A stretch of DNA of 52,219 nt. It comes from Pseudobdellovibrionaceae bacterium (GTDB lineage Bacteria > Bdellovibrionota > Bdellovibrionia > Bdellovibrionales > Bdellovibrionaceae). Positions 10,573 to 48,031 of this stretch are shown piece after piece (within the stretch, counting starts at the first letter, position 1; each line of letters begins with the position of its first letter). The position numbers were made by a program, and so were the translations under genes. The notes beneath the pieces were generated by a model. The model did not search any database and was not told the origin of the DNA. It was given only the letters and a program-made list of their open reading frames with translations. The stretch lies in NCBI GenBank assembly GCA_041987885.1, contig JBHIVS010000001.1:1-52219 (forward strand), written 5' to 3'.

Positions 10573-10981
10573 ATGAATCAGGATATCTATCAAATTTTTT
10601 AATAGATTCTAAATTATTTTCCCAGTTGGCTTTGCTTAAGTAAAATAGGTGAGCTGTGGGTTTCAACGTGACCTCAGAATTTAAGCTTCCTGCGGGAACC
10701 ACAAGCAGCTTTCCATCCATTTGTAGGTTCGGCACAGAAGATCCACAGTTTTTACAAAAACTTTTAACGTGACGGGTTTGTGGAAGATGATAGGTCTGTA
10801 TAGATTCTTTCCCAGAGATCCAATGAAGATCGGCCTTTGTTGAAAATAAATTCGCCGCGTGGGCAGAGCCTGTGTCTTTCTGGCAGTGTTTGCAGTGACA
10901 GAAATAGAAACTTTCAAAGGGGCCTGTCGCTTCGTATTTAATTGTTTCACACAAGCAAGAACCTTGGTGAGTTTCTGTCAT
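10571..10981 (-). CDS. GFA family (CENP-V-like) Zn protein
   Basis: GSCLC, CHCKHCQK.TGS, FCKNCGS. Confidence 0.9.
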   Translation of the reverse strand: MTETHQGSCLCETIKYEATGPFESFYFCHCKHCQKDTGSAHAANLFSTKADLHWISGKESIQTYHLPQTRHVKSFCKNCGSSVPNLQMDGKLLVVPAGSLNSEVTLKPTAHLFYLSKANWENNLESIKKFDRYPDS

Positions 10982-11128
10982 GGAAGATCTCCTGTTGATT
11001 GATATGTGAATATTTTAAAGTCAGCCTATGGTGATGTAAACTAAACTTTAATAAGGTCATTGGATTATTTTTATGATATGGATTGGATGGGTTTTGCTTG
11101 GGCATAAGAACTTGTAGACAGAGGGCTG

Positions 11129-13208: not shown

Positions 13209-13291
13209 GCGCGGGTGGTGGAATTGGTAGACACGTACGTTTGAGGGGCGTATGCGCAAGCGTGAGGGTTCAAGTCCCTCCTCGCGCACCA
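13209..13291 (+). tRNA. tRNA-Leu(GAG)
   Basis: Acceptor GCGCGGG/CTCGCGC-ACCA, D-loop GGAATTGGTAGAC, anticodon arm TACGT-TTGAGGG-GCGTA, long variable arm, GGTTCAAGTCC T-arm. Confidence 0.97.
13276..13291 (+). repeat. attL core
   Basis: CCCTCCTCGCGCACCA, identical to 48016-48031. Confidence 0.92.
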
Positions 13292-13430: not shown

Positions 13431-13452
13431 CTTACAACTTTCTTACAACTTT
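13431..13452 (+). repeat. Integrase arm-type sites (left)
   Basis: CTTACAACTTT x2, identical 22-mer at 47935-47956. Confidence 0.8.
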
Positions 13453-40508: not shown

Positions 40509-41114
40509 TTATTTTGAAAACTTTTTTTCAAGCAGTTTCATCGATGTTGACGAAGGAGATACGGGAATTGGTTTGAATTGTGATAGTATTTTTTTAGACA
40601 TGGTTAGCGGGATTGCATTTACTTTTTTAAATTCATCCGATAAATGCTTCATATCGTAATTCAAGCAAACGAGTATTTTTTTGGAAAACATTTTACAGAC
40701 AGACTCAATCGCGGGTAATAAGTCAGTGTCTGATGAAAAAATATAAGCTTGATCATAATTGTTGTAAAAAGCATCTATAATTAAATCTGTAGCAATTCTA
40801 ACATCAACGCCTTTTTCGACTGGGTATTTTTCTCCTTTAAACTGTCCGTAGAAAACTTTTATCCCTAAAACATCTTCGACATGGCGATAGAAAGCGTCGT
40901 CCCTGTGGTGTTTTGCTTGGTCTATTTCAGCAGGAAACCTCGCTCCATACATTTTGTATAGAATGTTCTTATTGTATTTCCCATTGTCGGTGATGAAGAG
41001 ATCGGCGAGTTTTTTGTAGTCATAACCTAAAGCATCGAAACCTAGGCCTTCTAGGGTGTGAATCATATTTCTACTGTCGAAATAAGCGATCGCCTTAAGA
41101 ATAATTGACCTCAA
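40509..41114 (-). CDS. NYN domain (LabA/DUF88, PIN-like) ribonuclease
   Basis: AYFDSRN, EKGVDVRIATDL, YD.A.IFSSDTDLLPA acidic catalytic motifs; start uncertain (TTG 41114 or ATT 41102). Confidence 0.9.
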   Translation of the reverse strand: MRSIILKAIAYFDSRNMIHTLEGLGFDALGYDYKKLADLFITDNGKYNKNILYKMYGARFPAEIDQAKHHRDDAFYRHVEDVLGIKVFYGQFKGEKYPVEKGVDVRIATDLIIDAFYNNYDQAYIFSSDTDLLPAIESVCKMFSKKILVCLNYDMKHLSDEFKKVNAIPLTMSKKILSQFKPIPVSPSSTSMKLLEKKFSK

Positions 41115-44685: not shown

Positions 44686-44855
44686 TGAGCATCTGGTCAA
44701 GTCCACTAATTAGAGCGATCGAGTGCGGCGCTGCCTGCAAAGAGTGTGGCGAAATTATTACCGACAATCCAGAGGGCGAAACAATAACTTGCGATGAGTG
44801 CAAAGGAGAAAATGAGAAAGAAAATAGAAAAAGTAACATGGCAACATCGTTTTGA
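44685..44855 (+). CDS. 56-aa Zn-finger protein
   Basis: TAATG coupling; CKECG...CDECK; below ORF track cutoff. Confidence 0.55.
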   Translation: MSIWSSPLIRAIECGAACKECGEIITDNPEGETITCDECKGENEKENRKSNMATSF

Positions 44856-45030
44856 TTTTTCAGCTATTTTAGAGTGCGAGCATTGTGGCCATAAGCAAGA
44901 ATTAAAATCGGGATATGACGATGAATATTATCATTCAAAAGTTTTGCCTTCGATAACTTGCGAAAGCTGCAAAAAAGATCGCCAAGGCAATATTACGAAT
45001 CAAAATTCTCAGGGCACCGTAAGTGTTTAA
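44812..45030 (+). CDS. Zn-ribbon phage protein
   Basis: DFSAILECEHCGH...GYDD.YYH..V.P...CESC; SD AAGGAG before 44812. Confidence 0.7.
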   Translation: MRKKIEKVTWQHRFDFSAILECEHCGHKQELKSGYDDEYYHSKVLPSITCESCKKDRQGNITNQNSQGTVSV

Positions 45031-45089
45031 TAAAATTTAAAAGAGGGTGAATAAATGCAAATCACACACAAACTAGAATGGATAGTATA

Positions 45090-45908
45090 ATGCTTGGACG
45101 CGTCCGTTGGAGCGATGTGTATGCGGGCAATGGAATTATTCGCGGCGACGATGGGAATGAATATTACTTCGATATTTCAGTCATTAAGTTTCCTTATCGA
45201 TCGGCAGATCTTCGCTCAGGTTGTCGTGTTTCATTTGCAGTCAACGAGCGAATCAGTGATTGCCCATGTGCTCATCAAGTAGTGTGGATTAAAGATAAAA
45301 ATGTGGAGTTTGATGTGAAAAATATTTGTGGATTAAAAGAAAGTCAATTTGAGAAAATTTATTCTCTATATCGCAAGGACGTAAGTGTATTGCCAAAAAC
45401 TGGTGGACACAGAGGGTTTAATATTTTTTGTCAGGCATATGACTACGAAAGTAGAGATCGTCTGTCTAAGATAACATTTGAAATTATTACGGATACCGCT
45501 CCTAGTGAGACTCAAATAGATAATGCACTTAGGGAAGAATTGATTCGCCGCTTAGAAGTAGCAAGTGGGGATTTTACGGACGCTGTTTTCGGTTACTTTA
45601 AGTCACAAAATAGAAAATATGTTGAGATGTTTAAGTCTGATATTTGTGACCTGTTAATCGAGAACTCAAAACTTTTTGAAAAAATCTTATTGGAAAATAT
45701 CGATCACCCAGAGGTGAATGAGTTATTTCAGAGAATTCTAGATCATAACACATATCAAGCAGAGCAGGATCTATTGGTTGAAGCAGAGAGAGCATGTCGG
45801 CAGCAAGCCCAAGACAGAAGAATGCAGCAAGATTTAAAGACAGTTAAGAAGAAACGAACACCAAAACAAAAACTAAAAGAAGATGAGTTTGGAGAGTTGA
45901 AGATATGA
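45090..45908 (+). CDS. Cold-shock (OB-fold) domain fused to an unknown domain
   Basis: GRVRW....G.GII..DDG.EYYFDIS.I....L..G.RVSF; start 45090 or 45078. Confidence 0.6.
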   Translation: MLGRVRWSDVYAGNGIIRGDDGNEYYFDISVIKFPYRSADLRSGCRVSFAVNERISDCPCAHQVVWIKDKNVEFDVKNICGLKESQFEKIYSLYRKDVSVLPKTGGHRGFNIFCQAYDYESRDRLSKITFEIITDTAPSETQIDNALREELIRRLEVASGDFTDAVFGYFKSQNRKYVEMFKSDICDLLIENSKLFEKILLENIDHPEVNELFQRILDHNTYQAEQDLLVEAERACRQQAQDRRMQQDLKTVKKKRTPKQKLKEDEFGELKI

Positions 45909-46135
45909 AAAAATCTAAAAATTTAGCCGTCAAAGTAGGCGAGTACACAACAAAAGACGGTCAAACAAAAGGCCGCTATTTAAACGTCGGTTGCATTATG
46001 GAGGGCGATAAAGGCTCTTTTATATTGCTCAACAAAACTTTTAATCCGGCGGGCATTCAAGACGGAAAAGAATCAGTGATTATTTCCATGTTTGAAGAAA
46101 AACCGAAGGATGAAAACCCTGATGACTTCTTTTAG
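45905..46135 (+). CDS. Small SSB-like phage protein
   Basis: GEYTTKDGQTKGRYLNVG; acidic-aromatic tail DENPDDFF. Confidence 0.55.
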   Translation: MKKSKNLAVKVGEYTTKDGQTKGRYLNVGCIMEGDKGSFILLNKTFNPAGIQDGKESVIISMFEEKPKDENPDDFF

Positions 46136-46592
46136 ACGCTAACTCTAGGGAGATCCCTTTAAACCTCCCGATGAGAATCAGGCCCTTTACCCTTAGATGA
46201 GCCAATCAGAAAAGGGAGTTTGAATGAAGTGATCTTGTGGTGTCTCGAAAGATGGTGGGTTGTAATCCCTAAGTAATCGGCCATTGAGATCACTTCCTTG
46301 AGACTTTGCGCCGAACAAGTGCAAAACCGCAATAAACGTTCGGATAGTTGCGGAGGCGTCAGGAGTGGCCCTGAATAATACTCAAAGAGACGGACTAAGC
46401 GGGGTCTCTTTAATCAACCAAGGCTTAAACCTCGTTTAGGTTCGACAAAACGTGAGCTAGTGAATAGCTCAGAAATATAAGTCCCTGTGGCACCGAGGTT
46501 ACGGTGCAGTTTGAAATCTCTCCCCATCGCCTAGGGTAGGTAGTAGCTAGGGGCGAGTGATCGCATGATGGGGGGAGATTTGAGGTTATTAG
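46136..46592 (+). ncRNA. Putative large structured non-coding RNA
   Basis: No + strand ORF in the track; about ten consecutive helices and several loop-loop complementarities (see findings). Confidence 0.65.
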
Positions 46593-46602
46593 TGGGGGTG
46601 TT

Positions 46603-46797
46603 ATGGCGATGAAGCGCAAGAAAAATACAGAAATAGAAAAGTTTATTTCAAGGTCTGAATTGATCGAGCTAAGAGGGTTGTCTTTAAAATTCATTCAATC
46701 TCACTTGAGAAATATTGAATACTCAATGGGATACCGAACTAAAAAATATAAACTTTCAGAAGTGGACGCGCTTTTAGAGCAAATGCGAGCAGGATAA
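46603..46797 (+). CDS. xis: Excisionase-like HTH protein
   Basis: FISRSEL....GLS..FI......G.RTKKYKLSEVD; immediately upstream of integrase. Confidence 0.7.
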   Translation: MAMKRKKNTEIEKFISRSELIELRGLSLKFIQSHLRNIEYSMGYRTKKYKLSEVDALLEQMRAG

Positions 46798-46801
46798 TTA
46801 A

Positions 46802-47917
46802 ATGACTAACGACCGCGCAAGATATATCAAAATGAATGGGCATCTAGGGTTTTATCAAAATGCGGTTTCAAAAAGAATCCGATATATTAAAGTTCACAAT
46901 GGAGTTACGGTAAGGCTTTCAACCAAAGCGACTAAAATCACGGATGCCAAAAAGATTGTCGATGAATATTTGATAAATCTTTTCTCTGAAAATCCTAAAA
47001 AAGACCTTTTAAAGAAAAAAGGCATTCAAAATCCATTGATCTCGAAAATTTGGAAAGAGCTTGTCGAGTCTAGATCCGTATCAAGGCAAGAAACTACTAT
47101 TGAAGGGTATGATGTATCTTGGCGCATCGGCATTGAGCCTTTTTGGGGCAAGAAAACCGTTCTTGAACTCAATCCAAGAGTTATGAGTGAATACGAGAAA
47201 TGGTATCTACAAAAACACAAAGAGCGTGTATTTTTTAATACCGGAAAGCACTTGGCGATGCTTATTCGCTATTGTCATCAAAACGGATATATTCAAAAAA
47301 TAGTGCCCGTCCCTGATATTGACCTAATCATAAACACAAGAACTCAAAAAGAAAAAGTGGGCAGGGTATATACAGACGCTGAGTACAAAGCTTGTATTGC
47401 CCATGCTTTTAATCCCATGATCAAGGTAGCCCTAACTTGTTACCGACATCTTGGGATGCGCAAAATGGAGCTTTTATCATCAAAGATTGAGCACTGGGAC
47501 TTGAAGAATAAAACCCTTAAGCTTTGGTCTGCCAAAAATAAGAAGTGGCGCACTGTTGTGATCCCAGATGTCGTTTTAGCGGCAATCAATGAATGGTTAG
47601 AAATTAGGCAAGATTCGATTTGGATGTTTCCTTCCGCAACAAATTCAGAAAAGCACGTCGTCTCTCAGGTCTTTGATGAGCAATGGACTAAGACAAAAAT
47701 CGCCGCAGAAATAGAAAATGCAGATGTTGAAAACGCTGCAAGGATCCATGACTGGAGGCATACTTTTGCCACCATGACAGCTCGTGACGGATGGCCTCCG
47801 ATAGCAGCTTGCTATGTTTTAGATATGTCTTTGCAGGAGTATCAAAATACCTATACTCACGTTTCGATGAAGGATATAATGAAGTTGATGATTAAGTCTT
47901 TCGGTGGTCAGAAATGA
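46802..47917 (+). CDS. int: Tyrosine integrase
   Basis: GMRKMEL (R), KNKKWR (K), HDWRHTFAT (HxxR), LDMS...TYTH (Y); adjacent to attR. Confidence 0.92.
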   Translation: MTNDRARYIKMNGHLGFYQNAVSKRIRYIKVHNGVTVRLSTKATKITDAKKIVDEYLINLFSENPKKDLLKKKGIQNPLISKIWKELVESRSVSRQETTIEGYDVSWRIGIEPFWGKKTVLELNPRVMSEYEKWYLQKHKERVFFNTGKHLAMLIRYCHQNGYIQKIVPVPDIDLIINTRTQKEKVGRVYTDAEYKACIAHAFNPMIKVALTCYRHLGMRKMELLSSKIEHWDLKNKTLKLWSAKNKKWRTVVIPDVVLAAINEWLEIRQDSIWMFPSATNSEKHVVSQVFDEQWTKTKIAAEIENADVENAARIHDWRHTFATMTARDGWPPIAACYVLDMSLQEYQNTYTHVSMKDIMKLMIKSFGGQK

Positions 47918-47934: not shown

Positions 47935-47956
47935 CTTACAACTTTCTTACAACTTT
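47935..47956 (+). repeat. Integrase arm-type sites (right)
   Basis: CTTACAACTTTCTTACAACTTT, identical to 13431-13452. Confidence 0.8.
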
Positions 47957-47985: not shown

Positions 47986-48015
47986 TTATTGTCTAAAATA
48001 GAAATATGTTTTAGG

Positions 48016-48031
48016 CCCTCCTCGCGCACCA
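48016..48031 (+). repeat. attR core (duplicated tRNA 3' end)
   Basis: CCCTCCTCGCGCACCA. Confidence 0.92.

Follow-up and report, generated by a model that had tools for sequence, protein, structure and literature searches.

What does a prophage keep in a gap of its early operon that appears to encode no protein? The question was raised by positions 46136–46592 of the window (the whole stretch of DNA that was analysed, 52,219 nt), which a preliminary description had read as one ~455-nt RNA, comparable to GOLLD and ROOL and stabilised by kissing loops. The host assembly (G000) is 70% complete, and its contig C1 is the window. Judged by its genes and its rRNA leader, the host is probably Bdellovibrio-like. 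The window contains a prophage of ~35 kb (13268–48031), bounded by repeats of the 3' end of tRNA-Leu(GAG), with attL at 13268–13291 and attR at 48008–48031. A further exact 22-nt direct repeat was found just inside both prophage ends (13431–13452 and 47935–47956).

The early operon begins with an HTH repressor gene (− strand) and an HTH gene (+ strand), continues with RecT-like, exonuclease and small genes, and reaches the gap after a 76-aa gene; beyond the gap lie a 64-aa gene and the gene of a tyrosine integrase. The 76-aa gene (45905..46135, + strand) matched PHROG 37570/18187, of unknown function, and gave no match in a Pfam search. The 64-aa gene (46603..46797, + strand) matched neither PHROG nor Pfam, and is xis-like by size and position only. 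The names 'SSB-like' and 'xis' given to these two genes earlier may be retained as positional labels, to which Pfam lent no support in either case. The integrase gene (46802..47917, + strand), the last of the operon, matched phrog_1 at E 8.8e-32, and PF00589 was found in its relatives. No promoter or terminator was detected on the + strand in 45700–46900. This suggested that the gap is read through from upstream, plausibly from the early (cro) promoter.

Two early genes upstream of the gap, both on the + strand, gave hints below the cut-off: a cold-shock-type domain in 45078–45908 (E 0.038) and a Lar-like zinc ribbon in 44794–45030 (E 0.00093). Downstream of the repressor lies an NYN-domain gene (40509–41114, − strand; PF01936, E 2.3e-07), which is likely to be expressed in the lysogen and is possibly an RNase moron. 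Elsewhere in the host assembly, a reading frame with a GGQ motif (G000:C266:462-1133), which we take to be release-factor-like, has an in-frame TGA after codon 35. The contig is phage-like and has three tRNA genes beside this frame; either read-through control or a misbinned phage contig is possible.

Much of what had been proposed for the gap was borne out by the letters. None of the three + strand frames contained an open reading frame of at least 40 aa with a common start. The nine helices tested all paired fully, and the two inner hairpins were present. The gap also folded better than its shuffles (+ strand z −3.64, with 0 of 100 shuffles as good; − strand z −4.20). Most of this folding signal came from two long stems, referred to below as stalks (z −4.6 and −4.8), and the spacer between them (z −2.0) and the 5' part (z −1.25) folded more weakly (60 shuffles each). 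No Rfam family matched the window at the gathering threshold or the gap at E<=10. A structured non-coding region on the + strand, inside a co-directional early operon, is thus supported.

The proposed architecture fared less well. Although the nine helices pair as letters, those at 46359, 46384 and 46428 had pair probabilities of at most 0.08 in the nested ensemble. The first helix (46159/46214) had a probability of 0.0, because its 3' strand pairs in the outer part of stalk 1 (0.66–0.98). The complementarities that had been taken for kissing loops exist as letters, but their number was at the chance level. When unpaired bases, defined by an approximate mask, were shuffled 1000 times, complementary stretches of at least 5 bp numbered 11 observed versus 9.7 in the shuffles, and those of at least 6 bp numbered 1 versus 1.8. 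The hairpin GGG-UUGUAAU-CCC had been called T-loop-like; it is equally readable as a Tyr(GUA) anticodon-type loop.

Searches with the gap itself gave no homologue. DNA searches returned nothing in 400 genomes of the phylum at E<=0.001, nothing but chance matches of 19–29 nt (in 10 genomes) among 181 of the family, and no homologue among the INPHARED phages; nhmmer likewise gave no significant homologue. Exact patterns matched 0 times in viral contigs. Four exact-pattern matches were rejected as chance hits unrelated to the gap RNA, as were seven in metagenome contigs, four of which came from one IS630 end. Scans by integrase alignment were swamped by generic integrases, this clade accounting for 2 of the 79 viral loci and for none of the 80 genome loci, and five RecT-like viral loci contributed no new stalk (one repeated L198). 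Six spacer RNA sequences aligned with a column identity of 35% and without a fold in common.

The recurring element was exposed by a phage, found by integrase alignment, that had repeated stems around unrelated insides. In the motif, 5'-UUGAA and about ten more pairs lead to an insert, after which the complementary strand runs back to UUGAG; a G.G mismatch occupies the centre, and there is usually another mismatch three pairs further in. The window holds exactly two such stalks, at 46220–46302 and 46511–46584. A strict test was applied to 21 regions (654 kb of strand-bases) surrounding related integrase, exonuclease or RecT genes. It gave nine stalks in five loci, all in the sense of the recombination/integrase operon. 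Before counting, four rows were dropped: L237 (the L198 phage) and L235 (identical with L236) as duplicates, a stalk in L205 that passed only a lax test, and the phage SPO1 control. The rest of the host assembly gave two matches in 5.22 Mb. The enrichment corresponded to a Poisson probability of about 1e-11, with thresholds that were fixed after the hits had been seen; for five of the nine stalks, the region was retrieved when the motif had already been defined. With the G.G centre there were nine matches, and with each of the 15 other possible centres 0–3.

The motif was absent in 22 of the 27 regions scanned, including six further regions (five from other families) with 0 matches. It was also not found on the sense strand of the first 13,500 nt of phage SPO1, a stretch in which RNase III sites lie. 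At the end of a contig of a related prophage (L021; G418:C82), the spacer-end motif and a long hairpin without the G.G core were seen before xis. This indicated that variant stalks exist and are missed by the strict scan.

In an alignment of 11 phage stalks, 12 of 16 pairs showed two-sided changes, and covariation was 0.63, compared with at most 0.14 for slid partners. A test of the ~20-bp helix found 91.7% of the cells paired. All three values are partly circular, pairing having been a search criterion.

The same scan on ribosomal RNA operons gave one match each, and this was the 16S precursor stalk, identical in core and register (4 of 4 operons in three complete genomes of the genus). The host's own 16S 3' arm ends in UUUUGAG. 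An RNase III gene (PF00636) was present in the host (G000:C105) and in three of four other genomes. In B. subtilis, according to the passages of PMC4838370 on pre-rRNA processing, RNase III cuts the 16S stalk, and a probe placed 'immediately upstream' of site III-2, a wording that is not nucleotide-exact, is complementary to a stretch ending in GUUUAGUUUU. In G331, G160 and the host, the base that follows this 10-mer is the mismatched G; G072 has nine of the ten bases there. For S. aureus, the relevant part of PMC3386247 places the 16S cuts at A-92 in the leader and U+64 in the trailer, with a 2-nt overhang, and for Aquifex that of PMC3074117 describes an A-C pair beside the 3' cut in the 16S stem. 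These data fit cuts after UUGAA on the 5' arm and between UU and GAG on the 3' arm. As the phage stalks bear the host 16S-stalk signature, cutting of the gap RNA into pieces is predicted.

We interpreted the gap as a set of swappable small-RNA cassettes, from which host RNase III probably frees three RNAs and a trimmed xis-int message; the RNAs are possibly decoys. On induction, the early transcript would be read from the upstream promoter and cut four times, in the register given above, leaving 2-nt 3' overhangs. The products would be cargo 1 (75 nt), the spacer (216 nt) and cargo 2 (66 nt). The cargo RNAs would keep a terminal stem of 10–15 bp, which may protect them. The stalks would thus stay constant and their contents be exchanged like accessory genes.

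The modules all lie on the + strand. The weakly structured 5' leader (46136..46215) would remain on the upstream mRNA after cutting. Its stretch GAGAAUCA-GGCCCUU also follows the counterpart of the 76-aa gene in G411/L223, in an unchanged position. About 22 identical bases are common to the leader (46161–46182) and to the end of an element in L016, L017, L018 and L020, presumably IS630-like as read from its ORFs; as homology this match was rejected, since it was judged a chance event for a scan of such size.

The 5' arm of stalk 1 (46216..46235) has its UUGAA core at 46220–46224 and a predicted cut between 46224 and 46225. The 3' arm (46287..46306) has its UUGAG core at 46298–46302 and a predicted cut between 46299 and 46300. 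G46222 is mismatched with G46300. The arms enclose cargo 1 (46236..46286), a module of two hairpins with a predicted product of 46225–46299. One of its hairpins, GGG-UUGUAAU-CCC at 46257–46269, has a stem of 3 bp and the 7-nt loop UU-GUA-AU. In a contig of public sequencing run X14, the 44-nt core of cargo 1 (46239–46282) was unchanged but relocated, lying behind stalk 1 and not inside it.

The spacer (46300..46515) would be released as the RNA between the stalks. Of its seven short hairpins, three are well supported, and two of the loop contacts of the preliminary description fall within it. Positions 46284–46515 occur in the X14 contig with six differences, and no second full homologue of the spacer was obtained. 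The 5' arm of stalk 2 (46507..46528; UUGAA core 46511–46515) and its 3' arm (46567..46588; UUGAG core 46580–46584) have predicted cuts between 46515 and 46516 and between 46581 and 46582. The outer pairs of this stalk are weak (probability 0.11–0.34). Cargo 2 (46529..46566), a hairpin with a G-rich loop and a short hairpin, would give the product 46516–46581, and the last cut would place the 5' end of the xis-int message 21 nt before the ATG. In contigs of run X4, the end of the first hairpin of cargo 2 was retained and the second hairpin swapped. The variants from public runs are known from contigs, three of the four runs examined are probably DNA, and parts not covered count as no evidence.

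Related phages carry the same kind of stalk around different contents. Independently of the pairing criterion, stalk 1 and a stalk of G411 agree in 15 bases of each arm, and their inserts (46 and 105 nt between 16-nt arms) are unrelated. The array of G411 occupies this slot too, behind the counterpart of the 76-aa gene. In G414, such modules extend over about 940 nt. Inside one G414 stalk (L225:3905-3977; G414:C140) lies a tRNA-Lys(UUU)-like RNA, which scored 32.5 bits with RF00005 (gathering 29) and has neither the GG of the D loop nor the UUC of the T loop. When the RNA downstream of a stalk is taken to begin precisely at the predicted cut, it is closed in 3 of 11 cases by a 7-bp helix together with a stacked hairpin and an A, a closure found for 0.9% of random starts. 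The window spacer has a degenerate version of this acceptor-like closure, without the full 7-bp helix. The close relatives G121 and G331, which have the same small gene, have no array, and the RNA was absent in 5 of 5 loci with relatives of the upstream small gene.

A separate conserved module, GCGUGGAAGCUGU ... CUG(G/U)AG(A)CACGC, is absent from the window and had no Rfam match. It was located in L223 (− strand, in the spacer between stalks, 10815–11001), L225:4077–4140, L204 (− strand, 2550–2778) and the L021 contig end. Its spacer-end hairpin has the loop AGUCGCGC in two phages, with stems that differ by compensatory changes. A second cargo family, of two hairpins, was seen in L223 (− strand, 11001–11092) and L198:13745–13830, with a 20-nt identical block inside different stalks.

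Four other readings were weighed against the swappable cassettes. The stalks might be T7-type signals that process or stabilise the early message, tuning above all xis-int, with the enclosed RNA as filler or as decayed tRNA debris. The differing cargo with its low sequence conservation, the absence of the array from several relatives, and the single stalks found shortly before ribosome-binding sites in G513/L224 and L204 all speak for such signals. For tuning a single cut would suffice, but the phages keep as much as 940 nt of structured RNA; modules recur in distant phages (the 14-nt block GCGUGGAAGCUGU(G) in three, the 20-nt cargo block in two), and the 44-nt core of cargo 1 is unchanged in its new slot. 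We therefore regard this reading as improbable. A single large RNA of the GOLLD/ROOL kind, or at most a compact pseudoknotted domain formed by the 216-nt spacer, would account for the z score of −3.64 and for the four or five loop complementarities present as letters. Both partners of the contact between the 5' and 3' domains appear to be kept in the contig variants, and a CUACCC/GGGUAG pair, weak as a 6-mer match, occupies similar places in G411. Nevertheless, the loop contacts are at the chance level, Rfam gave no match, the relatives are mosaics with no full-length homologue, and the stalks bear the 16S signature. The claim of one ~455-nt RNA was accordingly abandoned as very improbable.

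Slightly weaker still is the view that the UUUGAA arms bind proteins, whether as boxA-like (nut-type) antitermination sites or otherwise, and that the stems stay uncut. UUUGAA is common to the host 16S 5' arm GCUCUUUGAAAAC, which we take to resemble the boxA consensus, and to most of the phage arms, and in many cases the arm is preceded by a hairpin. Against this view, the location is the end of the operon, and where the host has CUC/CUU directly ahead of the core, the phage arms have three other bases, which covary with the 3' arm (AU, GC, UA, CG). This indicated conservation of the duplex and not of a single strand. Hardly credible, finally, is a DNA-level element (a small insertion element with target duplication, or a recombination cassette) or a divergent self-splicing intron. 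The UUGAA/UUGAG flanks do resemble a short direct repeat, the modules change slots, and GGACU/AGUCC presumably resembles P7 of group I introns. But the core G-U pairs in 10 of 11 stalks fit sense RNA only, all 11 stalks are on the sense strand, no gene is interrupted, and the identity with the 16S stalk would be left unexplained. Group I introns, tmRNA, RNase P and known ribozymes gave no match with covariance models or ARAGORN. Group I intron, hammerhead and c4-type folds were also weighed by eye and dropped, having no Rfam support.

We return to the cassettes and to what the released RNAs might do. That they act as decoys binding host proteins is the least certain part of the proposal, and we rate it as rather doubtful; the tRNA-shaped cargo is the only hint of it. 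The anticodon-like loops are GUA (Tyr) in cargo 1 of the window and UUU (Lys) in the G414 cargo. Both tRNA-Tyr and tRNA-Lys are named, in the relevant passages of PMC11555353, as targets of retron-Eco7 and PrrC170, respectively. The GUA hairpin is the one such match in 467 nt and may be due to chance. The window gap gave no match to RF00005 and no tRNA by ARAGORN at default settings; relaxed settings called a tRNA-Tyr at 46229–46309, among 271 mostly spurious calls.

Antisense pairing was scanned for in the 70%-complete host assembly, where the best match outside the locus was 14 nt; one match of 16 in 17 fell in a coding region. The host has csrA, and the spacer contains four GGA in 216 nt, about the number expected by chance. 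A CsrB-type reading, weighed by eye, was set aside, as GGA is not enriched and Rfam lent no support. The boldest form of the proposal gives temperate phages of predatory bacteria an accessory locus made of RNA only and built like a small rrn operon. By means of counterfeit 16S stalks, host RNase III would mature interchangeable RNAs there, including non-translating tRNA mimics (Tyr-GUA, Lys-UUU) as decoys for tRNA-cutting defence nucleases, and the compact 216-nt spacer would represent a new class of pseudoknotted RNA. We consider this unlikely.

If the cassette reading is right, 'empty' gaps in phage early operons may be slots for swappable RNA genes, and the copy of the host 16S stalk would be a searchable signature from which product ends are predicted to the nucleotide. 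The arrays would offer candidate small RNAs for anti-defence or host-control roles, and their stalks a naturally occurring series of covarying substrates for RNase III. It would also follow that dense helices in a phage gap may be a processed array and not one large RNA.

The principle of processing is already known from rRNA, T7 and DicF; what is new is the swappable, partly tRNA-shaped cargo. A literature search that lay mostly outside subscription papers turned up no description of phages in which mimics of the rRNA stalk are arrayed with swappable cargo. In T7 and SP82/SPO1, the intercistronic RNase III sites are simple hairpins between early genes. The array resembles the sites of T7 and SP82/SPO1 in placing stems for host RNase III between phage early genes, with cleavage predicted here; it differs in that its loop is a structured cargo and its stem copies the 16S stalk. 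The RNase III targets of SP82 are mentioned in the relevant part of PMC4838370. In the dicBF prophage operon, as described in the passages of PMC10448788 on DicF, RNase III helps to cut DicF from the early mRNA. The array would likewise belong to a pL-type prophage operon that yields small RNA by way of host RNase III. DicF, however, is one antisense sRNA with known targets, whereas the array holds several interchangeable, partly tRNA-shaped RNAs for which no antisense target was found.

With GOLLD and ROOL, as far as they are characterised in the relevant part of PMC12286853, the array has in common a structured, prophage-encoded RNA with tRNA-like neighbours. Unlike GOLLD, which by that account is often over 800 nt, it is shorter, and unlike both it has no Rfam match and no conserved full-length fold, and is predicted to be cut into pieces. 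The gap RNA is not a member of either class, as it has no covariance-model match and the corresponding slots of related phages are mosaics that do not share one full-length fold. The phage tRNAs of anti-defence described in the passages of PMC11555353 on T5 are working tRNAs that refill the pool, tRNA-Tyr countering retron-Eco7 and tRNA-Lys countering PrrC170. In contrast, the array RNAs have no normal T arm or no D/T-loop contacts, and would be decoys at most.

The array stalks also resemble the 16S precursor stalk of the host genus, which is likewise a long helix closing an RNA, with a UUGAA/UUGAR core and a G.G mismatch in the same register. The order of the array, stalk, tRNA-like spacer, stalk, is that of the host rrn spacer. 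Unlike the 16S stalk, the array stalks do not keep the boxA-like bases before the core, and they enclose swappable RNAs of 60–130 nt within a protein-coding operon of a phage.
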